Assembly: GCA_049999805.1 (NCBI GenBank) | Contig: JBNGIO010005803.1 | Coordinates: forward strand, 1 to 44,366 | Direction: 5' to 3' | Source: Folioceros fuciformis | Taxonomy: Eukaryota | Length of the DNA: 44,366 nucleotides | Shown: positions 9 to 34,175 of the stretch, piece after piece | Numbering within the stretch: the first letter of the stretch is position 1 | Layout: every line of letters begins with the position of its first letter | Made by a program: the position numbers and the translations under genes | The notes under the pieces: model-generated | What the model was told of the DNA's origin: nothing | Databases searched by the model: none | The model's input: only the letters and a program-made list of their open reading frames with translations

Positions 9-2474
9 ATGGATCCAGCACGTCTGAGAAATGGGATGCTTGGGGGTGAAGTTTCCAGCGATTGTAGCCGCCAGCAGCAGCAGCAGGCGGCTTTGTGGCG
101 AAAATTTTTCCTGGACCCTGGCATGTGGTGGGATAACCGGAGGGGTGGGGAGAGCTTTGGTTCGCCTGACTTCCGATGTAAGGAGTCCAGTGAGGTCCTC
201 TGGTTAAACAGCATGTTCAAGCCTGCTTGGGTGGACGAGCGGCTCGTGTCTTTGGATATGCAGATGGGTCGAAGTTCCTCTCCTTCTAAGCCGAGCTCTT
301 TGCATAAGTCTGAGCCTGGCAGGTTTCCAGGATCGGAATTGTGTGTCGTCATGGCTGAAACCGTGAGCACCTTATGTCAGCAGTCGAAGCTGACTGAGGC
401 TGTTGGAACCTTGGAATCTCTTGTACAGACAGGCAGTCCTGTTTCTCAGTCTCTCTTCTATATTGTGTTAAAACTGTGCGCATCTAAGAAGAATCTGGTT
501 GCGGGGCGACGAGTTCATAATCTGACTGTCAAACTTGGGTACGAGTCAAATACATTTCTAGGAAACCATATTTTGCGCATGTATGCATCTGGAGGTAGGC
601 TACAGGAGGCCATGGATGTGTTCACCCGGGTGGGTCAGCCAGATGCCTTTATGTGGGTTTCTATAATTTCTGCCTATGCGAAACACGGGAAACCTAGTGA
701 GGCCATACAACTGTACCAGGAGATGCGCAACTCAGGAGTCAAGGCGACTGCTCACGTGTTTGTGGCAGCCCTTCAGGCTTGTGCATTGGCTGGGGACTTG
801 AAATCTGGCAGAGAAGTGCACTGTGATGTATTGCACAGTGGCATTCCTGCTAACGTTTTTGTTGGAAACTGCCTGGTGGGGATGTATGCAAAATGTGGGG
901 ACCTGGAAGATGCTCGCAGGGTTTTTGACAGCTTAGGCACAAAGGATATTGTGACATGGACGGCTCTGATAGCTGGGTATGCAAATCATGGGCCTGAACA
1001 ACAGGCTCTTGTTCTTTACGAACAAATGGATCAGGAGGGCCTGGTCGTTGCTGACCATGTTACTTTTGCTTGTCTTTTGAAAGCATGTGCAAGCACTGGT
1101 GCTTTACAGAAGGGCAGGGAGCTGCACTCACAAATTGTGGAAAGAGGACAGCTAGATGACATACTTGTGGGTACTTCCCTTGTAGACATGTACGCAAAGT
1201 GTGGCGAGCTGGAGGATGCACGTCGAGTTTTTGACAGCTTGGCCGCAAAAGATGTGGTGACATGGACTGCCCTGATTGCGGAGTATGCACAGCAAGGTCT
1301 CGGCCAAGAGGCACTTACTTTGTATGGACAAATGGAGCAAGAAGGCTTGATTGTGGCTGACTGTGTTACCTTTGCTTGCCTTCTCAAGGCTTGTGCTAAC
1401 GCTGGTGCCTTACAGAAGGGCCGGCAGCTGCACTCACAGATCGTGGAAAGAGGACAGCTAGATGACATAATTGTGGGCACTTGCCTGGTGGACATGTATG
1501 CAAAGTGTGGTGAACTCGAAGAGGCACAGCGTGTTTTTGACAGCTTAGCAACAAAGAATGTTGTGACATGGAATGCCCTGATAGGTGGGTGGGGCGCTTG
1601 TGATGAAGGTCGCAATGCCCTAGCTTGTTTTGAGGAGATGTTAGTCTCCGGTATTGAGCCAGATGCTACTACTTTCACTTGCGTTTTAGGGGCATGCAGT
1701 CACGGGGGACTGGTGAATGAGGGTTGCAGGCACTTCGATTCCATAGTTCAATACCATGGCATCAAGCCTACTACTGAGCATTACAATTGCATGATTGATC
1801 TTCTTGGGCGTGCAGGCCTTTTAGATGAGGCTGAGAACATGCTACTATCATGTGAGAGCCAAAGCAACCTCGTGGGGTTGACTTCTTTGTTGAATGCTTG
1901 CAAAAATCATGGGGATATAGAGAGAGCAACACGGTGTTTTGAAAGTCTCGTTAGACTTGAGCCTCAGTGTGCATCTCCGTATGTGCTCATGGCCAATGCC
2001 TACGCAGATGCAGGCCGGTGGTCTGATGTTGAAAGGATCGAAACACAGAGAATGTTAGCAGGAGCTAACAAGAAGCCTGCAGTGGCGGGCATTGAGGTGA
2101 AAAAGCAAGTACACACATTTGTGGTGGGAGAACGGAGAGATGACCTTGCTCTTCAAGTAGAGAGCACGAATGCACGTCTGAAGCAGGAAGGAGGTCACGT
2201 ACCACACACAAAGTTGGTGTTGAAGCCACTGCCTGAGAAGGAAAAGGAAGACGTGCTTTGCGGGCATGCGGAGAAGTTAGCTCTGGCTTTTGGTCTCTTG
2301 AACACTCCCAGCGGCACGCCTCTGGTGGTCACGAAAAATCTACGCATGTGTAGCGACTGTCACAATTCCACGGAGATCATGTCAAGGGTAGAAAAGAGAG
2401 ACATTGTTGTGAGGGATGGATACCGTGTGCATCGATTCGCAGCTGGTTTTTGCAGTTGTAAGGCTCGACCTTGA
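9..2474 (+). CDS. PLS-class PPR protein with E1/E2 and DYW:KP (ARP-ending) domain; candidate U-to-C RNA editing factor; N-terminus probably truncated by the window edge
   Basis: Intronless 821-aa ORF with P-L-S repeats (VVTWTALIAxY / VTFACLLKAC / LVDMYAKCG), P2-L2-S2, E domains, KKPAVAGIEV, HAEKLA, CSDCH and C-terminal CSCKARP. The frame is open upstream of base 9 and paralogues have ~45 more N-terminal residues. Confidence 0.95.
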   Translation: MDPARLRNGMLGGEVSSDCSRQQQQQAALWRKFFLDPGMWWDNRRGGESFGSPDFRCKESSEVLWLNSMFKPAWVDERLVSLDMQMGRSSSPSKPSSLHKSEPGRFPGSELCVVMAETVSTLCQQSKLTEAVGTLESLVQTGSPVSQSLFYIVLKLCASKKNLVAGRRVHNLTVKLGYESNTFLGNHILRMYASGGRLQEAMDVFTRVGQPDAFMWVSIISAYAKHGKPSEAIQLYQEMRNSGVKATAHVFVAALQACALAGDLKSGREVHCDVLHSGIPANVFVGNCLVGMYAKCGDLEDARRVFDSLGTKDIVTWTALIAGYANHGPEQQALVLYEQMDQEGLVVADHVTFACLLKACASTGALQKGRELHSQIVERGQLDDILVGTSLVDMYAKCGELEDARRVFDSLAAKDVVTWTALIAEYAQQGLGQEALTLYGQMEQEGLIVADCVTFACLLKACANAGALQKGRQLHSQIVERGQLDDIIVGTCLVDMYAKCGELEEAQRVFDSLATKNVVTWNALIGGWGACDEGRNALACFEEMLVSGIEPDATTFTCVLGACSHGGLVNEGCRHFDSIVQYHGIKPTTEHYNCMIDLLGRAGLLDEAENMLLSCESQSNLVGLTSLLNACKNHGDIERATRCFESLVRLEPQCASPYVLMANAYADAGRWSDVERIETQRMLAGANKKPAVAGIEVKKQVHTFVVGERRDDLALQVESTNARLKQEGGHVPHTKLVLKPLPEKEKEDVLCGHAEKLALAFGLLNTPSGTPLVVTKNLRMCSDCHNSTEIMSRVEKRDIVVRDGYRVHRFAAGFCSCKARP

Positions 2475-3029: not shown

Positions 3030-5933
3030 ATGGCCACTCTATGGCAGCCGAATGCCTTGTGTTCCCACCAAACCGATGGCTGTACAGCAAGTCTACGAGA
3101 AGCTCCCCCTCACCTGACCTTGGTCAATCAGCCGCTGGCGAACAGTCAAGCCTCTAGGTCCAGCAGTGTAGGGAACCCAGCAGTTCCGAGGAAATGGTTG
3201 GCAAGGGAAGGATTTTCCAAAGCTGGTGGTCATCAGGAGAAGTCCCAGGAGCTAGTGTGGCGGCGACTTATTGTGGACCCTGCCATGTGCTGGGAGAACG
3301 GGCGACGCAGGAAGAGCTCTTCTTCCCCTTGCTCCCGGCGTAAGGGGTCTGGCGATGTCCTCTGGTTAAACAACACGGTCAAGCCAGACTGGGTGGATGT
3401 GCATACGCAAACAGATCATGATGCCTCTCCTTCCAAGTCTAGCGCCTCGGACAGGTCTCCGCCTGACAGACGTGCAGGACCGGAGGAGATGGGCGTCGTG
3501 ACGGCTGCAACCTTGAGCACGTTATGTGAGCAGGAGAAGCTTGATGAGGCCGTTGAAGCCCTGGAATCTCTGGCGCAGACAGAGTTTCCTATCCCTCAGT
3601 TTCTCATTTACAATGTGCTAAAACTGTGTGCAGCTAAGAAGGATCTGCGTGTAGGGCGACGAGTTCATGATATCACTATCAAGCTTGGGTACGAGTCGAA
3701 TACATACTTGGCGAACCATATCTTACGCATGTATGCAAGTGGAGGTAGGCTGCAGGAGGCCATGGATGTGTTCACCAGAATGGACAAACCAGATGTGTTC
3801 ATGTGGATTTCCATAATCTCTGCCCATGCCAAACATGGGCAACCTAGTGTGGCTATACGACTGTACCATGAGATGCGTAGCTCAGATGTGAAGGCTAATG
3901 CGTACGTCTTTGTTGCAGCTCTTCAAGCTTGTGCATTTGCTACCGACTTGGATTCGGGCAAACAAGTGCACTGTGACGTGTTGAACAGTGGCATTGCACC
4001 TAACTTGTTTGTTGGCAGCTGCCTCGTGGACATGTATGCCAAATGCGGCGCACTGGGCGATGCACACAGGGTTTTTGACAGTCTGGCCTCGAAGGACGTG
4101 GTTACATGGAACGCCCTGATAGGTGGGTATGCGAATCAGGGACTCGAGCAAGAGGCGCTTGTACTGTATGAGCAAATGGAGCAGGAGGGCCTGATTGTGA
4201 GTAGTCCTGTCACTTTTGCTTGCCTTCTGAAGGCTTGTGCAAGCACTGGTGCCTTGCAGACGGGCAGGCAACTGCACTCGCAGATAGTGGAAAGAGGACA
4301 GCTAGATGACATACTTGTCGGCACTGGCCTGGTAGATATGTATGCAAAGTGTGGTGAACTGGAAGAAGCACGCAGAGTTTTTGACAGCTTGTCTGCAAAA
4401 AATGTGGTGACATGGACAGCTCTAATTGCCGGGCATGTACAGCAAGGTCTTGGCCAGGAGGCTCTTGTCTTGTACGAGAAAATGGAGCAGGAAGGCCTGA
4501 TTGTGGGTAATCACGTTACTTACGCTTGCCTTCTGAAGGCTTGTGCAAGTGCCGGTGACTTGCAGAAGGGCAAGCAGCTGCACTCTCAGATCGTGGATAG
4601 GGGGCAGTTGGGTAGTTTACTTGTGAGCACTTGCCTGGTAGACATGTATGCAAAGTGTGGCGAATTGGAAGAGGCACGCAGAGTTTTTGACAGCTTGGCC
4701 ACAAAAAACGTGGTGACATGGACAGCCCTGATTGCCGGGTATGCACAGCAAGATCTCGGCTACGAGGCACTTGTTCTGTATGGTCAAATGGAGCAGGAGG
4801 GCCTCATAGTGCCTGATTCTGTCACTTTTGTTTGCCTTCTCAAGGCCTGTGCTAGCTCCGGTGCCTTGCAGAAGGGCAGGCAGCTGCACTCACAGATCGT
4901 GGAAAGAGGACAGTTGGATACCAACATACTTGTGGGCAACTCCCTGGTGGACATGTATGCAAAATGTGGTGCCCTGGAAGACGCTCGCCGGGTTTTTGAC
5001 AGCCTGGCCACCAAGGACGTGGTGACATGGAACGCCCTGATAGCTGGGTTTGGTGCCTGTGATGAAGGTCACATGGCATTAGCCTGTTTCGAGGAGATGT
5101 TAGCTGCCGGTATCCAGCCTAATGACGCCACTTTTTCTTGCCTTCTAGTTGCGTGCGGTCATGCTGGACTGGTGAATGAGGGTCGCAAGCACTTCGATTC
5201 CATGTTGGAACAGCATGGCGTGAAACCTACCAGTGAGCATCACAATTGCATGATTGATCTACTCGGGCGGGCAGGTCATCTAGAGGAGGCAGAAACCTTG
5301 TTATTAGCCTGTGAGAGCGGAAGCAACGTGGTGGGGTTGACGTCTTTGCTGAATGCCTGCAAATGTCATGGAGACGTTGAAAGGGCTGCATGGTGTTTTG
5401 AACGTCTGGTTAGGCTGCAGCCTCACGGTGCATCCGCATACGTTCTGATGGCGAACGTCTACGCGGACGCAGGTAGGTGGGCCGATGTATCCCGGACCGA
5501 AACACACCGAGTAGTAGCAGGCGCTACCAAGAAACCAGCAGCGGCGACCGTCGAGGTGAAGAAGCAAGTACACACGTTTGTGGTAGGAGAAAGAAGAGAC
5601 GACCTTGCTCTTCAAGTAGAGAGCACGAATGCTCGTCTGCAGCAGGAGGGGGGCCACGTGCCACGCACCAAGTTGGTGTTGAAGCCACTTTCCGAGGAGG
5701 AGAAGGAAGACGCTCTTTGCGGGCATGCTGAGAAGCTGGCTTTGGCGTTTGGTCTCTTGAATACTCCCAGTGGCACACCTCTGGTGGTAACGAAGAATCT
5801 ACGCATGTGCAGTGACTGCCACAGTTCCACGGAGATCATGTCACGGATCGAAAAGAGAGACATTGTTGTAAGGGATGGGTACCGTGTGCATCGATTCGCA
5901 GCTGGCTCTTGTAGTTGTGACGGTCGACCGTGA
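3030..5933 (+). CDS. PLS-class PPR protein with DYW:KP (GRP) domain
   Basis: 967-aa intronless ORF starting MATLWQP; three 36-35-31 aa triplets; KKPAAATVEV, HAEKLA, CSDCH, ends CSCDGRP. Confidence 0.95.
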   Translation: MATLWQPNALCSHQTDGCTASLREAPPHLTLVNQPLANSQASRSSSVGNPAVPRKWLAREGFSKAGGHQEKSQELVWRRLIVDPAMCWENGRRRKSSSSPCSRRKGSGDVLWLNNTVKPDWVDVHTQTDHDASPSKSSASDRSPPDRRAGPEEMGVVTAATLSTLCEQEKLDEAVEALESLAQTEFPIPQFLIYNVLKLCAAKKDLRVGRRVHDITIKLGYESNTYLANHILRMYASGGRLQEAMDVFTRMDKPDVFMWISIISAHAKHGQPSVAIRLYHEMRSSDVKANAYVFVAALQACAFATDLDSGKQVHCDVLNSGIAPNLFVGSCLVDMYAKCGALGDAHRVFDSLASKDVVTWNALIGGYANQGLEQEALVLYEQMEQEGLIVSSPVTFACLLKACASTGALQTGRQLHSQIVERGQLDDILVGTGLVDMYAKCGELEEARRVFDSLSAKNVVTWTALIAGHVQQGLGQEALVLYEKMEQEGLIVGNHVTYACLLKACASAGDLQKGKQLHSQIVDRGQLGSLLVSTCLVDMYAKCGELEEARRVFDSLATKNVVTWTALIAGYAQQDLGYEALVLYGQMEQEGLIVPDSVTFVCLLKACASSGALQKGRQLHSQIVERGQLDTNILVGNSLVDMYAKCGALEDARRVFDSLATKDVVTWNALIAGFGACDEGHMALACFEEMLAAGIQPNDATFSCLLVACGHAGLVNEGRKHFDSMLEQHGVKPTSEHHNCMIDLLGRAGHLEEAETLLLACESGSNVVGLTSLLNACKCHGDVERAAWCFERLVRLQPHGASAYVLMANVYADAGRWADVSRTETHRVVAGATKKPAAATVEVKKQVHTFVVGERRDDLALQVESTNARLQQEGGHVPRTKLVLKPLSEEEKEDALCGHAEKLALAFGLLNTPSGTPLVVTKNLRMCSDCHSSTEIMSRIEKRDIVVRDGYRVHRFAAGSCSCDGRP

Positions 5934-13097: not shown

Positions 13098-16000
13098 TCA
13101 GGGTCGGCCCTTACAACTGCAACAACCTGCTTCGAATCGATGCACACGGTACCCATCTCTTACAACGATGTCCCTCTGCTCAACCCTTGACATGATCTCG
13201 GTAGACCTGTGGCAGTCACTACACATGCGTAGATTCTTCGTCACCACTAAAGGTGTGCCACTCGGAGTGTTCAAGAGACCAAACGCCAGAGCTAGCTTCT
13301 CAGCATGCCCACAAAGCGCATCTTCCTTTTCCTTCTCAGACAGTGGCTTCAAAACCAACTTCGTGTGTGGAACGTGTCCTCCTTCCTGCTTCAGACGTGC
13401 ATTTGTGCTCTCTACTTGGAGAGCCAGATCATCTCTTCGTTCTCCCACCACAAATGTGTGTACCTGCTCCTTCACCTCAATGCCCGCCACGGCAGGTTTT
13501 TTGTTGGCTCCTGCTACTATTCTCTGTCTTTCGATCCTATCTACATCGGCCCACCTACCTGCATCCGCATACGCATTGGCCATGAGCACATATGGGGACG
13601 CACTCTGAGGCTCCAGCCTTACAAGACTTTCAAAACACTTTGTCGCCCTCTTTAAATCTCCGTGACTTTTGCAGGCATTCAGCAAAGACATAAACCCCAC
13701 AACATTGCTTTGGCTTTCACATGACAATAGCGTGCTCTCTGCCTCATCTAAATGGCCTGCACGCCCAAGAAGATCAATCATGCAATTGTAATGCTCGACA
13801 GTGGGTTTGATGCCATGCTGTTCAAACATGGAATCAAAGTACTTACGACCCTCGTTCACCAGTCCTGCATGACTGCATGCTACCAAAAGGCAAGTGAAAG
13901 TTGCATCATCAGGCTGGATGCCATCGACCAACATCTCCTCAAAGCAAGCTAGTGCGCTGTGCCCCTCATCACAAGTACCACACCCAGCTATCAGGACATT
14001 CCATGTCACCACATTTTTTGTCGCCAAGTTGTCAAAGACTCTGCGCGCGTCTTTAAGTTTGCCACATTTTGCATACATGTCCACCAGGCAAGTGCCCACA
14101 AGTGTGTTATCCAGCAGTCCTATTTCCACAATCTGAGAGTGCAGCTGCCTACCTTTCTCTAAGGCACCAGCAGTGGCACAGGCCTTGAGAACGCAGGCAA
14201 AAGTAACATGGTTACCAACAATAAGGCCTTCCTGCTCCATTTGGTCGTAGACAACAAGCGCCTCTTGCCCAAGCCCCTGATTTGCATACCCAGCTATAAG
14301 AGACGTCCATGTCACCACATCCTTTGTGGCCAAGCTGTCAAACACCCTGCGTGCGTCTTCCAGTTCGCCACATTTTGCGTACATGTCCACCAAACAGTTG
14401 GCCACCAGTCTGTTATCTAGCTGTCCTCTTTCCACGATCTGTGAGTGCAGCTCTCTGCCCTTCTGCAAGGCACCTGAGCTTGCGCAGGCCTTCAGAAGGC
14501 AAGCAAAGGTTACATGGTTACTGACGATAAGCCCTTCCTCCTCCATTTGTTCGTGTAGTTTGAGTGCGTCTTCTCCAAGTCCATGGTTCGCATACCCAGC
14601 TATCAGGGACGTCCATGTCACCACATCCTTTATAGCCAAGTTTTCAAATACCTTGCGTGAATCCCCCAGCTCGCCACATTTTGCGTACATGTCCACCAGG
14701 CAGTTGCCCACCAATAAGTTATCCAGCTGTCCTCTCTCCACAATCTGCGAATGGAGCTGCCTTCCCTTCTGCAAGGCACCAGCGCTTGCACAGGCCTTCA
14801 GAAGGCAAGCGAAAGTAACATGGTTACAAACCATCCAGCCCTCCTGCTCCATTTTCTCGTACAGAAAAAGTGCCTCCTGACCAAGACCTTGCTGTGCATA
14901 CCCAGCAATCAGAGCCGTCCATGTCACAACATCCTTTTTGGTGAGGCTGTCAAAAACGCGACGTGCATCTTCCAATTCGCCACACTTTACATACATGTCC
15001 ACCAGGCAAGTGCCCACAAGCACGCTATCTAGCTGTCCTCTATCTACAATCTGTGAATGCAGCTGCCTGCCCTTTCGTAAGTCAGCAGCACTTGCACACG
15101 CCTTCAGAAGGCAAGCAAAAGTTACGTGGTTTCCCACAATAAGGCCCTCCTCCTCCATTTGTCCATACAGAACAAGCGCCTCCTGGCCGAGGCCATGATC
15201 TGCATAGCCAGCAATCAGGGCCGTCCATGTCACCACATCCTTGGTAACCAAGCTTTCAAAAACCCTGCGTGCATCTTGCAGTTCACCGCACTTTGCATAC
15301 ATGTCCACGAGGCAGTTGCCGATGAACACGTTAGGAGGAATGCCACTGTGCACAACATCGCTGTGAACTCTTCTCCCAGATTTCAAGTCCACCGCAGCTG
15401 CACATGCTTGAAGGGCTGCTACAAAGACATGAGCATCCGCCTTCACACCCGAGCTTCGCATCGCATGGTACAGTTCGATGGCCTCGCGGGGTTTCCCATG
15501 TCTGGCATGAGCAGAGATTATGGAAAACAACATAAAGGCATCTGGTTTGCCATTCCTGATGAACACATCCATGGCCTCTTCTAGTCTACCTCCATACGCA
15601 TACATGCGCAAGATATGGTTCCCCAAAAATGTACTCGATTCGTAACCATGTTCAACAATGAGATCATGAACTCGTCGCCCCGCAACCAGATCCTTCCTAC
15701 CTGCGCACAGTTTTAGCACAGCATAGAACAGAGACTCAGATATAGGACGGTCGGTTTGGGCCAGACATTCCAGGGCCCCCACGGCCTCAGTGAGCTTCCC
15801 CTGCTCACATAACGAGCCCACGATTACAGGCGTGACGACGCCCGTTCTTGATCCTGCACACCTACCAGCCCCAGGCTTATCCGGAGGTCTCGACGTGGAA
15901 GGAGATGTGCCGTCATCCACCTGCATATCCAAGGAAACCAGCTGCTTATCCACCCAAGCTGGCTTGAACATGCTGTTTAACCAGAGGAGCTCACCAGACC

Positions 16001-16316
16001 CTTTACGTCGGAAGTCAGGCGAACCAGAGCTCTTCTTATCTCGCCTGTTATCCCACCACATTGCAGGGTCCAGAAAGAACTGTCGCCACAGCAGCTCCTG
16101 TTCCTGCTCATTGCGGCTACCGTGGCTGGAAAATCCGTCCGCGGCAGCCCAATCTGTCGCAAGTGTTGTGTCCCTTACACTGTTGCACCTGGAGGACTGG
16201 TAGCTTGCCAGAGCTTGACTACCATAAGTGAGATGGGTGGGAGCTCGTGGTAGAAGCCCAGTAGCTCCACCGATTTGCTGGGTCCGCAACGGATCCAATT
16301 GCGATACGTTGCCCAT
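13098..16316 (-). CDS. PLS-class PPR protein with DYW:KP (GRP) domain
   Basis: Intronless ORF. The track start at 16352 is a TTG; the ATG at 16316 (MGNVSQLDPL) aligns with paralogue starts. Four triplets; KKPAVAGIEV, HAEKLA, CSDCH, ends CSCKGRP. Confidence 0.95.
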   Translation of the reverse strand: MGNVSQLDPLRTQQIGGATGLLPRAPTHLTYGSQALASYQSSRCNSVRDTTLATDWAAADGFSSHGSRNEQEQELLWRQFFLDPAMWWDNRRDKKSSGSPDFRRKGSGELLWLNSMFKPAWVDKQLVSLDMQVDDGTSPSTSRPPDKPGAGRCAGSRTGVVTPVIVGSLCEQGKLTEAVGALECLAQTDRPISESLFYAVLKLCAGRKDLVAGRRVHDLIVEHGYESSTFLGNHILRMYAYGGRLEEAMDVFIRNGKPDAFMLFSIISAHARHGKPREAIELYHAMRSSGVKADAHVFVAALQACAAAVDLKSGRRVHSDVVHSGIPPNVFIGNCLVDMYAKCGELQDARRVFESLVTKDVVTWTALIAGYADHGLGQEALVLYGQMEEEGLIVGNHVTFACLLKACASAADLRKGRQLHSQIVDRGQLDSVLVGTCLVDMYVKCGELEDARRVFDSLTKKDVVTWTALIAGYAQQGLGQEALFLYEKMEQEGWMVCNHVTFACLLKACASAGALQKGRQLHSQIVERGQLDNLLVGNCLVDMYAKCGELGDSRKVFENLAIKDVVTWTSLIAGYANHGLGEDALKLHEQMEEEGLIVSNHVTFACLLKACASSGALQKGRELHSQIVERGQLDNRLVANCLVDMYAKCGELEDARRVFDSLATKDVVTWTSLIAGYANQGLGQEALVVYDQMEQEGLIVGNHVTFACVLKACATAGALEKGRQLHSQIVEIGLLDNTLVGTCLVDMYAKCGKLKDARRVFDNLATKNVVTWNVLIAGCGTCDEGHSALACFEEMLVDGIQPDDATFTCLLVACSHAGLVNEGRKYFDSMFEQHGIKPTVEHYNCMIDLLGRAGHLDEAESTLLSCESQSNVVGFMSLLNACKSHGDLKRATKCFESLVRLEPQSASPYVLMANAYADAGRWADVDRIERQRIVAGANKKPAVAGIEVKEQVHTFVVGERRDDLALQVESTNARLKQEGGHVPHTKLVLKPLSEKEKEDALCGHAEKLALAFGLLNTPSGTPLVVTKNLRMCSDCHRSTEIMSRVEQRDIVVRDGYRVHRFEAGCCSCKGRP

Positions 16317-17575: not shown

Positions 17576-20479
17576 TCAAGGTCGACCTTTGCAAGTGCAG
17601 CGACCCCCTGCAAATCGATGCACCCGGTACCCATCCCTCACAACAATGTCTCTCTTTTCAACCCTTGACATTATCTCAGTGGAACTGTGGCAGTCACTGC
17701 ACATGCGGAGATTCTTCGTTACCACCAGAGGTGTGCCACTAGGGGTGTTCAAGAGACCAAACGCCAGAGCTAGCTTCTCAGCATGCCCACAAAGCGCATC
17801 TTCCTTTTCCTTCTCAGACAGTGGCTTCAAAACCAACTTCGTGTGTGGTACGTGGCCCCCTTCCTGTTTCAGACGTGTACTTGTGCTCTCTGCTTGAAGA
17901 GCAAGATCGTCTCTGTTCTCTCCTACCACAAATGTATGTACCTGCTTGTTCACCTCAATGCCCGCCACGGCAGGTTTTTTGTTGGCTCCGGCTACTATTC
18001 TCTGTCTTTCAATCCTATCTACATCGGTCCACCTACCTGCATCTGCATATGCATTGGCCATGAGCACATATGGGGATGCACTCTGAGGCTCCAGTCTAAC
18101 GAGCCTTTCAAAACACCACCTCGCCCTCTCTAGATCTCCATGATTTTTGCAGGCAGTCAGCAAAGATGTAAACCCCACAACATTGCTTTGGCTCTCGCAT
18201 GATAATAGCATGTTCTCTGCCTCATCCAAATGGCCTGCACGCCCAAGGAGATCAACCATGCAATTGTAGTGCTCCACGGTAGGTTTGACTCCATGCTGTT
18301 CAACCATGGAATCGAAATACTGGCGACCCTCTTTCACCAGACCCTCGTGACTGCAAGCTAGTAAAAGGCAAGTAAAGGTAGCATCATCAGGCTGAACACC
18401 AGCAGATAACATATCTTCAAAACAAGATACTGCGTTGTGACCTTCATCACAAGTACCACACCCACCTATAAGGGCATTCCATGTGACCACGTTCTTTGTG
18501 ACCAAGCTGTCAAAAACCTGGCGAGCATCCTCTAATTCTCCACATTTTGCATACATGTCCACCAGACCAGTGCCCACAATGATGTTATTATCTAACTGTC
18601 CTCTTTCCACAATCTGTGAGTGCAGCTGCCTGCCCTTCTGTAAGGCACCAGCACTAGCACAGGCCTTCAGGAGGCAAGCAAAAGTGACATGGTTCGCTAC
18701 AACCAGGCCCTCCTCCTCCATTTGTCCGTACAGAGCAAGCGCCTCTTGGCCGAGCCCATGCTGTGCATATCCAGAAATCAGGGTATTCCATGTCACCACA
18801 TCTTTTGTGCCTAAGCTGGCGAAAACCTGGCGTGCATCAGCCAGTTCGCCAAATTTTGCATACATATCCACCAAGCAGTTACCCACAAGTATTTTACCAA
18901 GCTGTCCTCGTTCAACAATCTTTAAATGCAGCTGCCTGCCCTTATTCACAGCACCCGCGTTTGCACAGGCCTTCAGAAGACAAGCAAAAGTAACCTCGTC
19001 CGCCACAATCAGGCCCTCCTGCTCCATTTCTTCGTACAACACGAGCGCCTGTTGGCCGTAACCTTGCTGCGCAAACCCAGCAATCAAGGTCGTCCATGTC
19101 ACTACATCCTTCACGGGCATGTTGTCAAAAACCTGGCGTGCATCTTCCAGTTCACCACATTTTACATACATGTCCACGAGTGAGTTGCCTACAAGTACGT
19201 TATCTACCTGTCCACTGTCTACGACCTGTGAGTGCAGCTGCCTGCCCTTCTGTAAGGCACCAGCGCTCCCACAGGCCTTCAGAAGGCAAGCGAAAGTAAC
19301 ATGGTTGCCCACAATCAGGCCTTCCTCCTCCATTTGACCATACAGGACAAGTGCCACTTGGCCCAGACCATGATTAGCGTATCCACATATCAGGGCCGTC
19401 CATGTGACAACATCCTTAGTGACCAAGCTGTCAAAAACCCTGCGTGCATCTTCCAGTTCGCCGCATTTCGCATACATGTCCACCAGGCAGTTGCCGACAA
19501 ACAAGTTAGGGGGGATGCCACTAGCCAAGAGATCATGGTGCACCTTCCTGCCAGATTCCAAGTCCGTGGCAAATGCACAAGCTTGAAGGGCTGCCACAAA
19601 GACGTGAGCATCTGCCTTCAGACCTGACATACGCATCTCATGGTAGAGTTGTATGGCTCGAACAGGTTTCCCGTGCTTAGCATGAGCGGAGATGATGGAA
19701 AACCACATGAAGACATTTGGTCTGCCAACCCTGGTGAACACATCCATGGCCTCCTGTAGCCTACCTCCATACGCATACATCCGCAATAAGTGGTTCCCCA
19801 CATAGGCATTTGACTCGTACCCAAGTTTGACAGTGAGATCATGGACTCTCCGCCCCACAGCCACGTCCTTCTTAGCTGCACACAGTTTCAGCACAGTGTA
19901 TAAGAGAGTTTGGGGAACAGGACAGTTCGCCTGCGCCAGAGAGTCCAGGGCCCCTACGGCCTCAGCAAGCTTCCCCTGCCGACAGAAATTTCTCACGGTC
20001 ACTGCCGTCACGATGCCCGTTTCCAGTTCCGCACTCCTGCTAAGCTCACAAGCATCCAGAGAATGGAGCCCGGAAGGAGAGTCACCTTGACCCAGATGCA
20101 TATCCAAACTAACGAGATGCTCATCCACCCAAGGCGGCTTGAACACGCTGTTTAACCAGAGAACCTCGTCGGACCCCTTACGCCGGAAGTCAGGCGACCG
20201 AGCGCTCTTCTTACTTCGCCTGTTATCCCACCACATGCCAGGGTGCAGGAAAAGTTGCCGCCACAAGATCTCCTGCTCCTGCTCCTGCTCCTGCTCCAGC
20301 CCCTGGCGACCACCATCGCTAGAAAACCTTCCCCCGGCTACCCACTTGCTCGGAGGTCCTGAGTTTCCCAGACTGCTGCGACTGGAGGATTGCGTGTTTG
20401 CTAGAGTTCCTGCTACAGTCTCTGTGCATCCACCAATGTGTTGGGTCCACACCGGACTTGGTTGCCATAGTCTGGCCAT
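17576..20479 (-). CDS. PLS-class PPR protein with DYW:KP (GRP) domain
   Basis: 967-aa intronless ORF starting MARLWQP; three triplets; KKPAVAGIEV, HAEKLA, CSDCH, ends CTCKGRP. Confidence 0.95.
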   Translation of the reverse strand: MARLWQPSPVWTQHIGGCTETVAGTLANTQSSSRSSLGNSGPPSKWVAGGRFSSDGGRQGLEQEQEQEQEILWRQLFLHPGMWWDNRRSKKSARSPDFRRKGSDEVLWLNSVFKPPWVDEHLVSLDMHLGQGDSPSGLHSLDACELSRSAELETGIVTAVTVRNFCRQGKLAEAVGALDSLAQANCPVPQTLLYTVLKLCAAKKDVAVGRRVHDLTVKLGYESNAYVGNHLLRMYAYGGRLQEAMDVFTRVGRPNVFMWFSIISAHAKHGKPVRAIQLYHEMRMSGLKADAHVFVAALQACAFATDLESGRKVHHDLLASGIPPNLFVGNCLVDMYAKCGELEDARRVFDSLVTKDVVTWTALICGYANHGLGQVALVLYGQMEEEGLIVGNHVTFACLLKACGSAGALQKGRQLHSQVVDSGQVDNVLVGNSLVDMYVKCGELEDARQVFDNMPVKDVVTWTTLIAGFAQQGYGQQALVLYEEMEQEGLIVADEVTFACLLKACANAGAVNKGRQLHLKIVERGQLGKILVGNCLVDMYAKFGELADARQVFASLGTKDVVTWNTLISGYAQHGLGQEALALYGQMEEEGLVVANHVTFACLLKACASAGALQKGRQLHSQIVERGQLDNNIIVGTGLVDMYAKCGELEDARQVFDSLVTKNVVTWNALIGGCGTCDEGHNAVSCFEDMLSAGVQPDDATFTCLLLACSHEGLVKEGRQYFDSMVEQHGVKPTVEHYNCMVDLLGRAGHLDEAENMLLSCESQSNVVGFTSLLTACKNHGDLERARWCFERLVRLEPQSASPYVLMANAYADAGRWTDVDRIERQRIVAGANKKPAVAGIEVNKQVHTFVVGENRDDLALQAESTSTRLKQEGGHVPHTKLVLKPLSEKEKEDALCGHAEKLALAFGLLNTPSGTPLVVTKNLRMCSDCHSSTEIMSRVEKRDIVVRDGYRVHRFAGGRCTCKGRP

Positions 20480-22326: not shown

Positions 22327-24278
22327 TCATCTCTGACCTTTGGGAGCCCACACGGTCTTGGCCGTTATGATCACTGACCCATCACCCTTCCTCAGGGTAT
22401 GCCACAATCGTGAAGTCCCATCCGGGTTTATGGTTGGCGTCCGAGAAGCTGGTTGCGTGGGGGACCCCATTGCACCTCTTTTAGCCAACGAGGTGTCTTC
22501 TGGGCTAGTGAGGGAAACCACTATGTCTTGCTGATGACATTCCCGACGATACTCCATAGTAATGCTCCTTAGTTCGGATGCGTCTAACACCTCAGACGGT
22601 ACGCTCTGCATCGAATTTCGCTCGCTTTAGAAGAAAAGCCTACGAACTCTTGTGTAACGCACAAAACATGGAGCTGGATTGGTGGAAAGGAACCTCAAGT
22701 ATCCAGGGAATGTACTTGACATTGTTTACATGTCGATTCAAATCCAGATCATTTCGGTGAGGCTGCACGTTTCGGAATAAACACGTCAGCCCGGCATCCC
22801 GCACAAAAATCCGGAGGAGCCCTTATCCCTAGCCTTTGCTAATTGAAGATCAAATAGCATGAACACACGGACATCTCACCTTCAGGCCAGGTTGCACGTA
22901 GGTTGCCGAATCATCCAGCTCTCGAATCTTCTGAAAAACTTCAGTTGAAATGGCATGCTTGTCGTGGAAAAAAGGAGTGACTTCCTCTCTCACTTGGCTG
23001 GGCATTTTTGCCATTCTCCGTGTCTGCATGTTCATGAGCACCCACTGACTGCCAAACGCGTTGTCCAGACGAGCATTCCAAGTTAAGGTCAAGGGCCATT
23101 CTCTGGACAGGGAAGCCATCAAGCGAGAAAACGGCAATTACCTAGTTCCTCGGGCAATAACTCGTTGTGTATCAAAGTCACGGGCAATCCAGTCCCTTCG
23201 CATGCCATTTGACGCCTGACCGTGTGAAGCTACCCATGAGTCTATCTCGATCATACTACCCCTGTCAAACCGCACTCAAATTCAGAAAGAGCGAGGCCGT
23301 AACGATTGGGCAAGGGACTCCAAGATAGTCTAGTCTGTCAGCGATGCGCCAATACTTGAGAGCTCAGCTGCAGCAGCTTGGCATAGGCAATCACAAACAC
23401 ATTGGACAACAAACAAAGCCGCGGAAGGAGAATCCGTACCACGCAGGATATTGGTCAACTTCCACATGCATGCGCCTCACCACCCAAATCAACCCACACT
23501 CAAACATAGCCTTTGTTGATCCAAAACCCCCTGCTCCAATCCCTGAGTATAAAACATGATTCAGCGCAACCTCCTGCCAAAGACCAAACACAAGCAGGAT
23601 TAGACGACTTGGTGGAATCTGAATCTTAGGATACCAGAAATTGCGGTTGGGATCCGCTACCTGAAAAAGATTTGTCACCGTTTCAATGGACGCGGCTTTG
23701 TCGGCCCCGACTTCGGAGTACCGAATCACGAACGCCTGTCTGTAAAGTTCCTTATTCTGCGTGAGGCACCCCTTCCTAAGGGCTTCTAGTGGCCGACTCC
23801 CCGGCACGTGTGGCTCCAGAATGAGACTGGAGAGCGCTACCCTCAGCGCGCAAAGAACATCAGCGGAGGGTAGCCTGACAACTTCACTGGGAGCAGCAAT
23901 GTCAGGGGAGGTAACACCCTGAGCTTCCGGCAGCTTGCTACTGACGACATTGCTCCTGGAAAACCTCTTCCTGCTCCACGTCTTTCCGTAGGCTTCTCCA
24001 AGGAGCGGAAAATTTCGGCAAGCCCCAAACGCTTTCGATCCCCGTGTTCGCCGAACTCTCAGCCCTGCGCACACCTCCGATGTTCCGATGGCAGGCCACT
24101 CCATCTTCAAGTCATTGAACGGGGGGAAGGAAGCAGCTGAACTATGAAGACTGTGGCACATTGTGCTCCGGTCATCACAATCCGAAGCTGTCCTGAGAAT
24201 GGCCTCCGTCCTAGCGGAAAGGTCCACCAGGGCAGGCGATTGGATAGCTCCCATCAGGCTGGCCGAAGAAAATCTCAT
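22327..24278 (-). CDS. Plastid acyl-ACP thioesterase (FatA/FatB family), multi-exon
   Basis: Exons give YRQAFVIRYSEVGADKAASIETVTNLFQ|EVALNH, GFGSTKAM, LIWVVRRMHVEVDQYPAW, NGMRRDWI, WVLMNMQTRRMAKMP, DLDLNRHVNNVKYIPWILE and ITMEYRREC (catalytic N-x-H and Cys motifs). Ser-rich N-terminal extension; first in-frame ATG at 24278 (start uncertain). Confidence 0.92.
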
Positions 24279-24492
24279 TTCACAATTCAACCGATCCTAC
24301 ACGCGCAAGACACACACAACTTCTGTCTCGGGAAAGCAGCAGTCGTCGCAACCACAATCTGCGGACATGCAGAGAAGAGAGACAAAGACTCTCCCGACGG
24401 CCGACAAGCAGCCAGCACAACCAGCGGCAAGCAGGTGGACACACGGCTGCCATTCCCTTGAACCTTAGAAAATACAGCCCCTCGGAAAGCCC

Positions 24493-27035: not shown

Positions 27036-29948
27036 TCATGGTCGACCTTTACATGTGCAACAACCACCTGCAAATCGATGCACTCTGTACCCATCCCTCA
27101 CAACAATCTCCCTCTTTTCAACTCTTGACATGATCTGTGTGGAACTGTGGCAGTCACTGCACATGCGGAGGTTCTTCGTTACCACCAGAGGTGTGCCAGT
27201 GGGAGTGTTCAACAGACCAAACGCAAGAGCTAGCTTCTCAGCATGCCCGCAAAGAGCATCTTCCTTCTCCTTCTCAGAGAGTGGCTTCAAAGTGAGCTTC
27301 GTGTTTGGTATGTGGCCCCCATCCTGCTTCATTCGTGCATTTGTGCTCTCTATTTGAAGAGCAAGATCGTCTCTTCGTTCTCCCACCACAAATGTATGTA
27401 CCTGCTTGTTCACCTCAATCCCGGCTACAGCAGGTTTCTTGCTAGCTCCTACCAACAATCTCTGTGCTTCAATCCTATCTACGTCACTCCACCTACCTGC
27501 ATCTGCATACGCATTGGCCATGAGCACGTACGAGGATGCACTCTGAGGTTCCAGTCTAACGAGACTTTCAAAACATCGCGTGGCTCTATCGATATCCCCG
27601 TGACTTCTGCAGGCGTTCAGCAAAGACTTCAACCCCACAACATTGCTTTGGCTCTCACATAATCGTAGCATCGTCTCTGCCTCATCTAAATGGCCTGCAC
27701 GCCCAAGAAGATCAACCATGCAGTTGTAGTGCTCTACAGTAGGTTTGATGCCATGCTGTTCGACCATGGAGTCAAAGTACTTGCGACCCTCATTCACAAG
27801 TCCTCCGTGACTGCATGCTACTAACAGGCAAGTGAAGGTGGCATCATCAGGCTTCGTGCCGGCAATTAGCATGTCCTCAAAACAGGCCAGCGCATCGTGA
27901 GCCTCATCACAGAGACCACAACCACCTATCAGGGAGTTCCACGTCACCACATCCTTCGTGGCCAAGCTGTGGAAAACCCGACATGCATCTTCCACAGCGC
28001 CACACTTTGCATACATGTCCACCAGGGAGTTGCCCACCAGTACGCTATCCAGCTGCCCTCTTGCCACAATTTGCGAGTGCAGCTGCCTGCCATTTTGTAA
28101 TGCACCAGCGCCTGCACAAGCATTGAGAAGGCAAGCGAAAGTAACATGGTCACCCACAATCAGACCTTCCTGGTCCATTTCTCCATACAGAACAAGTGCC
28201 TCCTCACCAAGACCTTGCTGTGCATACCCTGCAATCAGGGCTGTCCACGTGACCAAATTTTTTGTAGACAAGCTGTCAAAAACCCTGCGAGCTTCCTCCA
28301 GTTCCCCACATTTTGCATACATATCTACTACGCAAGTCCCCACGATTATGTTATCTAGCTGTCCTCTTTCCACAAGCTGTAAGTGCAGCTGCCTGCCCTT
28401 CTGCAAGGCACCAGCACTTGCACACGCCTTCAGAACGCAAGCAAAAGTGACCTCGTCAGCCACAATCAGACCTTCGCGCTCCATTTGGCCGTACATGTCA
28501 AGCGCCTCCTGCCCGAGGCCTTGCTGTGCATACCCTGCAATCAGGGCATTCCATGTGACAATATCCTTCGAGGCCAAGCTGTCAAACACATGGCGGGCAT
28601 CTTCCAGTTCACCACATTTCACATACATGTCAACCAGGCAGTTGCCGACGAGTACGTTATCTACCTGTCCCCTTTTCACAATCTGTGAGTGCAGCTGCCT
28701 GCCCTCGTACAAGGCACCAACACTTGCACATGCCTTCAGAAGGCAGGCAAAAGTCACATGGTCAGCCACAACCAGGCACTGCTGCTCCATTTGTCCATAC
28801 AGAACAAGCGCCTCTTGGCCCAAACCGTGTTTTGCATACCCAGCGATCAGGGAAGTCCATGTCACAACATCCTTAGTTACCAAGCTGTCAAAAACCCTAC
28901 GTGCATCTTCCAGTTCGCCACATTTTGCATACATATTCACCAGGCAGTTGCCAACAAACAAGCTAGGAGGCATGCCACACTCCCACACATCACGGTGCAC
29001 TCTTCTGCCCGATTCCAAGTCCCCACATGACGCACAAGCCTGAAGCGTTGCGACAAAGATGTGCGCATCTGCCTTTACTCCTGAGCTACGCATTTCTTGG
29101 TACAGTTGCACAGCCACATTGGGTCTCCCTAGTTTCGCATTGGCGGAGATGATGGAATACCAAGTGAAGACACTTGGCCTGCCAACTCTGGTGAACACAT
29201 CCATGGCCTCCGGTAGCCTACCTCCAAATGCATACATACGTAAGATATGATTCCCCACATATGAATCTGACTCGTAGCCAAGCGTGACGATGAGATCATG
29301 AACTCGTCGCCCCAAAACAACATCCTTCTTAACCGCACAAAGCTTCAACACACTACAACAGAGAGAACGAGAGATACGAAAGTCTGCCTGCGCCAGAGAT
29401 TCCAAAGCTCCAACGGCCTCTGGAAGCTTCCCCTGTTGACAAAAAGTGCTTACTGTTGCAGCCGTTACCACGCCCATCTCCGATCCTGCACGCCTGCCAG
29501 GCTCAGGCTTATTCAAAAAGCTCCACTTGGAAAGAGAGGCACCAGAACCCATCTGCATATCCAAAGAAACCAGCTTCCCATCCACCCATGCTGGCTTCCA
29601 CGTGCTGTTTAACCAGAGAACCTCGTCGGACTCCTTGCACCGAAAGTCTGGCGAATCTGAGCTCTTCTTGCCTACTCTGTTATCCCACCACATGGCCGGG
29701 TCCAGAAAAAATCGTCGCCACAAGAGCTCCTGCTCCTGCCCCTGCCCATCTTTATCGGTGGACAATACTTCCCCAGCCATACATTTGCTTGAAGATGCGG
29801 AGCTTCTTACACTGCTGCACCGACACGCTTGGCTGCTCGCCAGAGGTTGTCTCCATAACGTTGAGTGACCAGGAGCTCCAGGTAGAATCCGTGTACACTC
29901 ACCAGTTTGTTGGGCCCATGACGGATCAGCTGGCCACACTTTGGCCAT
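27036..29948 (-). CDS. PLS-class PPR protein with DYW:KP (GRP) domain
   Basis: 970-aa intronless ORF starting MAKVWPADP; three triplets; KKPAVAGIEV, HAEKLA, CSDCH, ends CTCKGRP. Confidence 0.95.
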   Translation of the reverse strand: MAKVWPADPSWAQQTGECTRILPGAPGHSTLWRQPLASSQACRCSSVRSSASSSKCMAGEVLSTDKDGQGQEQELLWRRFFLDPAMWWDNRVGKKSSDSPDFRCKESDEVLWLNSTWKPAWVDGKLVSLDMQMGSGASLSKWSFLNKPEPGRRAGSEMGVVTAATVSTFCQQGKLPEAVGALESLAQADFRISRSLCCSVLKLCAVKKDVVLGRRVHDLIVTLGYESDSYVGNHILRMYAFGGRLPEAMDVFTRVGRPSVFTWYSIISANAKLGRPNVAVQLYQEMRSSGVKADAHIFVATLQACASCGDLESGRRVHRDVWECGMPPSLFVGNCLVNMYAKCGELEDARRVFDSLVTKDVVTWTSLIAGYAKHGLGQEALVLYGQMEQQCLVVADHVTFACLLKACASVGALYEGRQLHSQIVKRGQVDNVLVGNCLVDMYVKCGELEDARHVFDSLASKDIVTWNALIAGYAQQGLGQEALDMYGQMEREGLIVADEVTFACVLKACASAGALQKGRQLHLQLVERGQLDNIIVGTCVVDMYAKCGELEEARRVFDSLSTKNLVTWTALIAGYAQQGLGEEALVLYGEMDQEGLIVGDHVTFACLLNACAGAGALQNGRQLHSQIVARGQLDSVLVGNSLVDMYAKCGAVEDACRVFHSLATKDVVTWNSLIGGCGLCDEAHDALACFEDMLIAGTKPDDATFTCLLVACSHGGLVNEGRKYFDSMVEQHGIKPTVEHYNCMVDLLGRAGHLDEAETMLRLCESQSNVVGLKSLLNACRSHGDIDRATRCFESLVRLEPQSASSYVLMANAYADAGRWSDVDRIEAQRLLVGASKKPAVAGIEVNKQVHTFVVGERRDDLALQIESTNARMKQDGGHIPNTKLTLKPLSEKEKEDALCGHAEKLALAFGLLNTPTGTPLVVTKNLRMCSDCHSSTQIMSRVEKREIVVRDGYRVHRFAGGCCTCKGRP

Positions 29949-30437: not shown

Positions 30438-32548
30438 ATGGCCACAGTATGGCAACCGGATGCCCTGTGGGTCCAACAAAATGGTGGGTGTACAGGTATT
30501 CTATCAGACGCTACCGCTCACCACTTGTTGAGTAATCAATCGCCGGCAAGTAGCCATTCCACCAGCTGCAGCAGCGCAGGGAGCCCAACTCTTCCTGGAA
30601 AGTGGATGACCGGGGAACGATTTCCCAGCGATCGCAGTCGCAAGGAGCAAGAGCTCTTGTGGCAACAATTTTTTCTGGACCCTGCAATGTGATGGGATAA
30701 CAGGCGAGGTAAGAAGAGTTGTGGTTCGCCCGATTTCCGCGGAAGGTGTCCGGCGAGGTCCTCTGGTTACACAGCACGTTCAAGTCAGTATGGGTCGATG
30801 AGCAGCTGGTTTCTTTGGATATGCTGGTTTCTTAGTGACTCGCTTCACAAGTCTAGCTCTCCTATTGATCCTGATGCAAGAGCAGATGTGGGTGTCGGAA
30901 CTGCTGTATCAGTGAGCACGTTATGTCTACAGGGGAATCTTACGTGGGCAGTTGAAGCCCTGGAATCTTTGACGCAGGGAGGCTGTTCTATTTCTCAGTC
31001 TCTCTTTTGCAGTGTGCTAAATCTGTGTGCAGCTAAGAAAGATCGGGTTACTGGCAGACGAGGTCATATCTTACTGTGAAACTTGGGTACGAGTCAGATA
31101 CGTTCTTTGGGAACCATGCCTTGCGATTGTATGAAGGCGGAGGAATGCTACAGGAGGCCATGAATGTGTTCACCAGGGTGTGGTGTGGGCAAGTCATATG
31201 CCTTCATGTGGTTTTCCATAATCTCTGCACATGTTAAACTTGGGACACCCAATGAGGCCATCAGACTGTACAACGAGATGTGTAGCTCAGGTTTGCAGGC
31301 GAATGCTCATGTTTTTGTCGCAGCCCTTCAAGCTACGGCCTCTGCCGTGGACTTGGAACCTGGCCAAAAGGTACACCGTGACGTGTAGCACAGCGGCCTT
31401 CCTCCTAACTTCTTTGTTGGTAACTGCTTGGTGGACATTTACGTGCAAGTGCTGGTTCCTTACAGAAGGGCAGGCAGCTGCACTCGCAGATTGTGGGAAG
31501 AGGCCGGCTGGATATCGTCCTGATAGGGAACTGCTTGGTGGACATGTACGCAAAGTGAGGCGAGGTGAAAGATGCACATCATGTTTTTGACAGTTTGGAC
31601 ACCAAGAATCTGGTGACTTGAATGCCTGATAGCTGGGTATGGTTCTTGCCATGAAGGTTGCAAAGCACTGGCTTGTTTTGAGGGGATGGTAATGGCCGGG
31701 ATTCAGCCTGATGATGCTACTTTTACTTGCCTTCTAGTAGCGCGCAGTCATGCAGGGCTGGTGGATGAGAGAGGCATGCACTTTGACGCTATGGTTGAAC
31801 AGCATGGCATCAAATCTACTGTTGAGCATTACAGTTGCATGATAGATCTGCTTGGCGGTGCTGGCCATTTAGGTGAAGGAGAGAACGTGCTACTATCATG
31901 TGAGAGTCAAAGCGATGCTGTGGGCTTGATGGCTTTTCTGAATACCAGCAAAAATCATGGAGATGTGGTTAGAGCGATGCGGTGTTTTGAAAGTCTCGTG
32001 AAACATGGGCTTCAAGTTGCATCTGCGTCTGTGCTCATGGCCAACGACTATGCCAAATGCATGTCGGTGGGCCGATGTTGAGGGATTGAAACACTAAGAA
32101 CGGCATCAGGATCTAACAAGACACCTGCAGTGGCTGGTATTGAGGTGAAGAGGCAGGTACATACCTTTGTAGTGGGAGAGAACAGAGATGATGATGTAGA
32201 TGACATTTGTAGCGGGAGAGAACAGAGAAGCGTGCTCTCAAGCGCCCAAGCTAGAGAGCACACCTCTCAAGCAGGTGGGGGGCTATGCACGACATACAAA
32301 ATTTGTTTCCAAGCCACTCTCTGAGAAGGAGAAAGAAGATGCGGGCACGCTGAGAAGCTTGCTCTTGCGTTTGGTCTCTGGAACACTCCGGCTGGCACAC
32401 CTCTAGTGGTATCCAAGGACTTGAGGATGTGCAGTAACTGCCACAGGTCCACAGATATCCTTTCTAAGGTTGAACACAGAGACATAGTTGTAAGTGATGG
32501 GTACCGAGCGCATCGATTCGCCGCTGGTTGTTGGAGTTGTCACCTTGA
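30438..32548 (+). pseudogene. Pseudogene of the same PPR-DYW:KP family
   Basis: Starts MATVWQPDALW and is collinear with the intact paralogues. Stops at 30690 (TGG>TGA), 31386 and 31556; several frameshifts; central triplets deleted; a deletion just before HAEKL (32346); residual KTPAVAGIEV and CSNCH. Confidence 0.92.
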
Positions 32549-33393: not shown

Positions 33394-33507
33394 AAAAACC
33401 AAGCCCTGTATCTATAGTTGGTTTTCTTGGACAAACCTCGGGTTGCAATTCGCTTGGACGTCCTCATCTTCGAGCTTCGTGTGCGCGCCTTCCACAGTGG
33501 GAGCAAG

Positions 33508-34175
<668 letters not shown>

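Follow-up and report, generated by a model that had tools for sequence, protein, structure and literature searches.

A probable OSB-type PDF domain at the N-terminus of PLS-class PPR editing factors in a hornwort gene cluster

The contig JBNGIO010005803.1 of Folioceros fuciformis (assembly GCA_049999805.1), which was analysed over its whole length of 44,366 nucleotides and is referred to here as the window, carries a family of genes for pentatricopeptide repeat (PPR) proteins of the PLS type in which a small non-PPR module precedes the first repeat. This locus raises the question of what the module is, whether it belongs to one type of RNA editor, and what it may contribute to the proteins that carry it. 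In the RNA editing of plant organelles, specificity is provided by PLS-class PPR proteins. To our knowledge, work on these editors has centred on the PPR array and the C-terminal domains, and the KP type has been engineered as the only known programmable U-to-C editor. Judged by its homology, the module is almost certainly a genuine PDF domain, as present in the OSB proteins of plant organelles, which bind single-stranded DNA (ssDNA). The best explanation overall, to which we assign a probability of about 0.5, is that such a domain was recruited to the N-terminus of PLS-class PPR proteins and acts there as a tethered single-strand binder.

Six long intronless open reading frames (ORFs) of 821-1076 amino acids, read in the standard code and clearly paralogous, were identified in the window as intact PLS-type PPR genes. 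Together with one pseudogene they make up seven family members, and tblastn searches, for which the DYW domain and the PPR array served as queries, gave the same number of PPR-DYW loci (n=7). A profile of the module, designated A3 and 59 positions long, was searched against the six-frame translation of the window using hmmsearch and revealed exactly seven module loci. Each of the seven PPR-DYW loci carries one module, located between the leader and the first PPR. The original prediction had assigned a copy to every editing-factor gene of the window; this is confirmed by hmmsearch and tblastn for 7/7 loci, and the predicted positions agree with the profile loci to within a few bases. The module loci are listed below with the score and the independent E-value (i-E) of the profile match.

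90-263, plus strand: module of gene 1 (ALWRKFFLDPGMWWDNRR...SPDFRCK...LWLNSMFKPAWVD); score 99.8, i-E 2e-32
3249-3413, plus strand: module of gene 2, degenerate; score 82.9, i-E 3.7e-27
15921-16097, minus strand: module of gene 3, nearest to the consensus; score 108.7, i-E 3.3e-35
20096-20272, minus strand: module of gene 4; score 103.4, i-E 1.5e-33
29553-29729, minus strand: module of gene 5; score 102.1, i-E 3.8e-33
30651-30823, plus strand: module of the pseudogene, as two half matches (30651-30740 and 30734-30823) split by a frameshift
38228-38404, minus strand: module of gene 6, partly degenerate; score 89.4, i-E 3.7e-29

In front of the module lies a serine-rich leader, presumed to be a transit peptide, and a linker of about 30 residues connects the module with the first PPR. 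Among the six intact copies, 17 of the 59 columns are invariant and the mean column identity is 76%. The PDF triplet is kept in four of these six copies and in the pseudogene, whose module contains an in-frame TGA at 30690-30692 within the WW pair and frameshifts thereafter. The module of gene 2 reads MCWENG...SPCS, with WW changed to CW, DN to EN and PDF to PCS, and five residues are deleted at its C-terminal end, which is the only gap found among the intact copies. The module of gene 6 reads RWRANR...SPNF, with WWDNR changed to RWRANR and PDF to PNF. A loose regular expression for the core gave six matches in the window, compared to none in 100 mononucleotide shuffles. A simple DNA repeat was ruled out as the origin of the seven copies, since they lie in frame in seven paralogous genes with a synonymous divergence of about 0.7.

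In order to place the module among known domains, the profile of the six window copies was searched against 1.84 billion representative proteins, which resulted in 522 matches at E<=1e-3, of which 113 reach E<=1e-10 and 15 reach E<=1e-30. Most of the matches listed, the best 150 of the 522, contain 2-13 tandem units, each with a literal "PDF". One of them is P0038, "protein OSB1, mitochondrial-like [Populus nigra]", which has two C-terminal matches (hmmsearch E 1.4e-18). Both P0038 and P0031, another OSB match, show an SSB-domain match in Pfam, which is weak in P0038. In a second search, many angiosperm proteins named OSB1, OSB2 or OSB3 were found among the best 120 of 227 proteins at E<=1e-5. 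The alignment of the window modules matched the C-terminal PDF motif of the Populus OSB1 with an hhalign probability of 98.4% (E 5.3e-15, 43% identity, 58 columns). A single window module matched OSB2 of Brachypodium in BLASTP with 49% identity over 53 residues (E 2e-14), and a weaker second match fell on the other PDF unit of the same protein. The homology to the OSB PDF motif that had been proposed from the letters of the contig is borne out by these matches.

According to the sections available of PMC6963530 and PMC4166229, the PDF motif has about 50 amino acids, is named after its conserved P, D and F, and occurs in 1-3 copies per OSB protein, C-terminal to an OB-like domain. The window module is of corresponding length, with 59 profile positions aligned over the six intact copies, and in an alignment of 33 rows the P of the Pro-Asp-Phe triplet is invariant, while D and F are conserved to 90% or more. 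Aromatic or basic residues predominate at those positions of this alignment that are invariant or nearly so (W, W, D, R, K, P, D, F, L, W, P, W). With the motif of OSB1-OSB4 the module shares a size of about 50-60 amino acids, the signature W...P..WWDNR..K.....PDF.HK...E.LWL....P.WV. and an identity of 43-49% (Populus OSB1 and Brachypodium OSB2); a copy number of 1-3 per protein, as in OSBs, is found on lycophyte and fern PPR proteins. The architecture is different: in the window the motif is single, N-terminal and placed on a PLS PPR array with a DYW:KP deaminase, whereas in OSBs it lies C-terminal to an OB/SSB-like domain. No SSB domain was found by Pfam at E<=1 in two full window proteins and one N-terminus of 172 amino acids, and for this reason the window proteins are not OSBs. 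The module itself has no Pfam model, as the same 172-residue N-terminus gave no match at E<=1 apart from a chance match to DUF2398 (E 0.22).

The search also recovered PDF-type units in other contexts. P0054, a kinesin motor protein of 1526 amino acids, carries three of them ahead of the motor domain, and the PDF motif therefore appears to be a mobile module beyond OSBs and PPR proteins. P0001 from Kingdonia uniflora (1160 amino acids) and P0008 (908 amino acids) consist almost wholly of 11-13 tandem PDF units, compared to the 1-3 copies described for OSBs in the sources above. A sequence search of the PDB with the A3 profile gave only N-termini of CP29 (8bd3_R, 6kac_R, 9hd7_R; ...ALWLPNTxRPxWLDGSL) at E 0.12-0.15, which resemble LWLNS..KPAWVD and are probably chance matches.

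Whether the module is maintained as a unit was assessed by dN/dS values, calculated according to Nei and Gojobori as the mean over the 15 pairs of the six intact genes, for the segments of the protein:

Leader: dN/dS 0.66
Module: dN/dS 0.31
Linker of about 30 residues: dN/dS 0.84
First PPRs: dN/dS 0.25
C-terminal 330 residues: dN/dS 0.13

Without the two drifted genes (2 and 6), the value of the module falls to 0.22 and that of the linker is 1.02. Since the module lies below both leader and linker, it forms a constrained island between two nearly free segments, and it is a discrete domain under purifying selection. A structural model was predicted with AlphaFold2 for an 84-residue piece, using the gene 3 copy as first row of 33 aligned rows that comprise the window copies and short database proteins. 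The model has a mean pLDDT of 86.4 and a pTM of 0.68, and the predicted fold is a small alpha/beta unit with a helix at 3-20, strands at 25-27 and 40-42 and a second helix at 59-73. No solved look-alike of this model was found: the best Foldseek match against the PDB has an E-value of 7.5, and a comparison by VIA-align with 48,161 chains gave none at Z>=5, the best being an unrelated chain at Z 4.6. A PC4- or Whirly-like fold, to which the original prediction had pointed as a comparison, thus finds no support in either search. The feature search of the ESM Atlas returned phage gp49 clusters at 0.83, which is below the meaningful level. Prediction of a homodimer of the 84-residue module, made without the 33-row alignment and without controls, resulted in scores of 0.00 and 0.00, which give no verdict.

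The fusion of the module to PPR arrays extends well beyond the window. PPR sequence was recognised by BLAST in 16 of the best 150 of the 522 profile matches, and PPR Pfam domains were identified in 55 of the best 120 of the 227 proteins at E<=1e-5. These 55 proteins are distributed as follows:

Diphasiastrum complanatum: 47
Adiantum: 2
Ceratopteris: 2
Selaginella: 1
Pteridium: 1
Others: 2

Further module-bearing proteins of Pteridium and Adiantum were obtained in additional look-ups. Diphasiastrum complanatum possesses a large family of PLS PPR proteins with 1-3 N-terminal PDF units (e.g. P0177-P0181 and P0235-P0267), and up to three tandem modules are present on proteins of both Diphasiastrum and Pteridium. 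In one Diphasiastrum subgroup, the first unit is shrunk to a remnant of about 20 residues ahead of a full unit. The Sphagnum jensenii model P0276 has the module and no clear PPR, and a short model of the liverwort Calypogeia consists of the module alone. In two metagenome proteins, P0283 and P0285, which bear the source label "pentatricopeptide repeat protein", the module is followed by clear PLS repeats. In the gene models P0103 (Selaginella) and P0068 (Adiantum), the module starts as early as residue 6 or 21, so that a transit peptide would hardly fit in front of it; either these models are N-terminally short or the proteins are targeted differently. No seed-plant PPR protein with the module was seen among the named matches listed, and the named angiosperm matches all look like OSBs. 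The expectation that ordinary PLS-DYW factors lack the module consequently stands for the seed-plant proteins seen and fails elsewhere, as PG/DYW proteins of Diphasiastrum carry it.

To relate these copies to each other, a quick maximum likelihood tree was constructed from 127 module copies chosen from 588, with 59 columns. Diphasiastrum was thinned at random to 14 proteins for this sample, and the non-PPR proteins to 45, with only their first and last unit included. All 54 PPR-borne copies fall into one subtree of 61 rows (SH-aLRT 88, not starred), and the other seven rows of this subtree are short fragments, some of them labelled as PPR protein. The window copies group together with two other GRP proteins. 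The PPR-borne copies are thereby set apart from the OSB motifs, and their ligand is putative. The same invariant W/P/W core is found from hornworts to ferns. The module tree is compatible with one old fusion, although a tree of 59 columns is weak.

The next question is whether the module is linked to U-to-C editing. Pfam analysis of two window proteins identified PPR families, the E_motif (E 4.6e-14) and the DYW_deaminase (E 1.9e-32). The deaminase domain of the window proteins opens with KKPAVAGIEV in place of the PG box, a KP-type box also labelled "KPAxA", and the proteins end in the C-terminal triplet GRP in five of the six intact genes and in ARP in gene 1. PLS array, E motif, KP-type DYW domain and GRP ending are those described in PMC9478123 (citing Gerke 2020 and Gutmann 2020) for the GRP subgroup of PPR-DYW:KP proteins in hornworts, a group of candidate and engineered U-to-C editors; the definitions of PG and KP and of GRP and DRH are taken from the same source. 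Based on this match, the PPR genes of the window form a tandem cluster in the nuclear genome and encode candidate factors for U-to-C editing of the hornwort GRP type. The difference from that description lies at the N-terminus: the available sections of PMC9478123 deal with the PPR and C-terminal domains only, and its designer proteins have no N-terminal module. These designer DYW:KP proteins, composed of PLS repeats and C-terminal domains only, edit U to C in E. coli at 22-50% (PMC9478123).

The original prediction had considered the module a possible speciality of U-to-C editors. A database sample of 66 module-bearing PPR proteins was evaluated for this. A DYW domain is present in 16 of them, and 15 of these 16, all from Diphasiastrum, have the canonical PG box (...PGCSWIE...) and end in GDYW; only one is of the KP/GRP type. 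A DYW domain is missing from the remaining 50 of the 66; those of them that are full-length fern proteins terminate within the E motif or behind it. In Diphasiastrum, 1-3 modules are found on canonical PG/DYW as well as on E-only PPR proteins. Conversely, a search with the KP deaminase domain of the window gave 58 proteins, and nine KP-like relatives from outside the window have at least 60 residues before the first-PPR homology. The module is present in three of these (two GRP, one DRH), reduced to a remnant in one (P0305) and absent from five, by a crude measure in which PPR repeats may align out of register and many ORFs may be incomplete. Specificity for U-to-C editors is not supported by these numbers on either side, the 15/16 PG/GDYW proteins and the 50/66 without DYW as well as the 5/9 KP relatives without the module. 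The module is not part of the U-to-C chemistry and is instead an accessory of PLS PPR proteins generally (KP, PG and E-only) in hornworts, lycophytes, ferns and at least some mosses.

What such an accessory might do can be approached through the OSB proteins. The mechanism that we propose is tentative, although we regard it as a serious possibility. Recruited to the N-terminus of PLS-class PPR proteins, the OSB-type PDF domain would serve there as a flexibly tethered, sequence-unspecific binder of single-stranded nucleic acid. The module would contact the RNA just upstream (5') of the PPR footprint, where it would strengthen the binding and prevent base pairing of the upstream region; the C-terminal DYW:KP domain would meanwhile act on the edited base. 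According to the sections available of PMC10482289, the last PPR repeat faces position -4 and the N-terminal repeats lie further 5'; because the N-terminal PPRs face the 5' part of the target, the module would reach RNA 5' of the footprint. The binding activity is proposed by analogy, since AtOSB1 needs no more than its PDF motif to bind ssDNA (PMC6963530, in the sections available). The copy number of the PPR-borne module, which varies from 1 to 3 as in OSBs, and the mostly aromatic or basic character of its conserved positions were counted as consistent with a putative binder.

Several points weigh against this explanation. The single-strand binding of the PPR-borne modules is putative, by analogy with OSBs, and AtOSB1 and AtOSB2 prefer ssDNA over double-stranded DNA or RNA, which fits a DNA tether better than an RNA clamp (PMC4166229, in the sections available). 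The module is not needed for catalysis, as the designer KP editors work without it (PMC9478123). Its evolutionary dispensability is apparent from the loss of the WW or PDF signature in 2/6 intact window copies and from its absence in 5/9 KP-type relatives with a long N-terminus. The isoelectric point of the 59-residue module spans 5.2-11.3 among the window copies, so that it is not uniformly basic. With no solved relative from Foldseek or VIA-align, the model says nothing about the binding mode, and the presence of the module in the mature protein after cleavage of the transit peptide is a presumption.

Of the other explanations, the one that holds up best follows from the DNA preference just mentioned. 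Instead of clamping RNA, the module would bind single-stranded organellar DNA as a nucleoid tether and concentrate the editor at transcribed or replicating DNA, resulting in co-transcriptional editing. The sufficiency of the AtOSB1 motif for ssDNA binding and the strong homology to OSB PDF motifs in hhalign and BLASTP are in keeping with such a tether, as is the preference of OSB1 and OSB2 for ssDNA over RNA. However, localisation and binding of the PPR-borne modules are putative, the ligand could have changed in copies whose subtree is separate from those of the OSBs, and many paralogues, presumably in the same organelles, have no module. We consider a DNA tether rather unlikely.

An adaptor function appears improbable as well. 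Here the module would not bind nucleic acid at all and would self-associate or recruit a partner, such as an OSB-like or other PDF-bearing protein or a helper for E-type PPR proteins without DYW. The fern proteins and many Diphasiastrum proteins with the module lack a DYW domain and would depend on a deaminase supplied in trans, AtOSB2 has been reported to be tetrameric (PMC6963530), and the occurrence of the motif on the unrelated kinesin P0054 is as often seen with mobile adaptor modules. Set against this, the partner is purely hypothetical, and ssDNA binding is the sole experimental role reported for the motif in the available sections of PMC6963530 and PMC4166229.

A last reading, in which the module has no task in the mature protein and is either a relic that can be spared or a stretch of the import sequence, is very improbable: two window copies without signature residues, the remnant in P0305, the many paralogues without a module and its start at residue 6-21 in the Selaginella and Adiantum models, where a presequence is expected, would suit this idea, but they are opposed by a dN/dS of 0.31, or 0.22 if only the four best copies are taken, where leader and linker have values of 0.66-1.0, by the W/P/W core that is invariant from hornworts to ferns, by a confidently predicted folded AlphaFold2 model and by the C-terminal position of the same motif in OSBs, as described in the sources cited for them, which shows that it is not a targeting signal in itself.

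Returning to the tethered single-strand binder, two known systems are suitable for comparison. PPR proteins with accessory domains, e.g. PPR4 with its N-terminal RRM, likewise combine a helical-repeat RNA reader with a small extra nucleic-acid-binding domain at one end. For the PPR proteins of Physcomitrium, RRM, LAGLIDADG, SMR, NYN, CBS and SAP are listed as accessory domains, and PDF is not among them (PMC9459714). Those proteins belong to the P class, whereas the host of the module in the window is of the PLS editing class. The MORF/RIP helpers of seed-plant editosomes may share with the module a non-catalytic helper role for PLS PPR editors. According to the sections available of PMC13386178, MORFs are proteins of their own, contain a different, PA-like domain and are reported to occur in seed plants exclusively, whereas the PDF module is fused in cis and, on PPR proteins, was seen only in non-seed plants.

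This complementary occurrence leads to a broader scenario, which we offer as speculation and consider doubtful, in which the PDF module is a built-in, cis-acting counterpart of the trans-acting seed-plant editosome helpers. An early land-plant PLS PPR protein would have captured an OSB-type motif, which would then have spread in 1-3 copies in hornworts, mosses, lycophytes and ferns and would assist editors of either direction, C-to-U and U-to-C, in engaging structured RNA of the organelles. The module would later have become dispensable and been lost from PPR proteins in the seed-plant lineage, where the MORF proteins arose. If this were true, synthetic GRP-type U-to-C editors, whose efficiency is low, should edit better once PDF modules are added. 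The module is also a candidate answer to the question of how editing factors work in lineages without MORF helpers.

A known PDF motif in a new host architecture, the PLS PPR editors, is what we consider to be new here. No description of a PDF-PPR fusion was found in the searchable full-text literature, a scope that leaves aside the founding papers on the KP class and on OSBs as well as supplements. Neither "OSB" nor "PDF" appears in the main text of a survey from 2026 that covers domain fusions of editing factors in 364 genomes (PMC13386178). With its homology to a characterised ssDNA-binding motif, the conserved N-terminal domain may represent a third functional part of these editors. It is carried by PG-, KP- and E-type proteins in land plants other than seed plants, and the PDF motif thereby has a wider range than the OSB proteins from which it was known.

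The genes of the cluster and the other features of the window are arranged as follows. The ORF of gene 1 is open at the 5' end of the window, and its short leader is therefore an edge effect.

3/9-2474, plus strand: gene 1, PLS PPR with E motif and DYW:KP, ending ARP; ORF open from base 3; Pfam PPR, E_motif and DYW_deaminase
3030-5933, plus strand: gene 2, intact PLS PPR-DYW:KP of 967 amino acids, ending GRP; ORF, tblastn
13098-16316, minus strand: gene 3, intact PLS PPR-DYW:KP of 1072 amino acids, ending GRP; ORF, Pfam, tblastn
17576-20479, minus strand: gene 4, intact PLS PPR-DYW:KP of 967 amino acids, ending GRP; ORF, tblastn
23391-24296, minus strand: match to the acyl-ACP thioesterase N-terminal domain in an exon-sized ORF; E 2e-08
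27036-29948, minus strand: gene 5, intact PLS PPR-DYW:KP of 970 amino acids, ending GRP; ORF, tblastn
about 30438-32570, plus strand: pseudogene of the same PPR family with a stop codon, several frameshifts and a shortened PPR array
33418-33660, plus strand: match to ribosomal protein S8/uS8 in an exon-sized ORF; E 4e-04
35405-38635, minus strand: gene 6, intact PLS PPR-DYW:KP of 1076 amino acids, ending GRP; ORF, tblastn
39051-43320, minus strand: multi-exon gene of Integrator complex subunit 7; INTS7_N, INTS7_HB and the plant-specific INTS7_C in separate ORF pieces (Pfam)

The PPR array of the pseudogene measures about 1.1 kb, compared to about 2 kb as usual in the cluster, and its DYW region is only 60% identical to that of gene 3. 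A single sequencing run, the kind of which was guessed, covers the gene as well as the intergenic DNA on both sides in fragmented contigs and is thus uninformative on transcription and splicing. The gene of Integrator subunit 7 is unrelated to the PPR cluster and identifies the window as nuclear plant DNA, and with the thioesterase and uS8 exons, ordinary genes are interspersed among the PPR genes.

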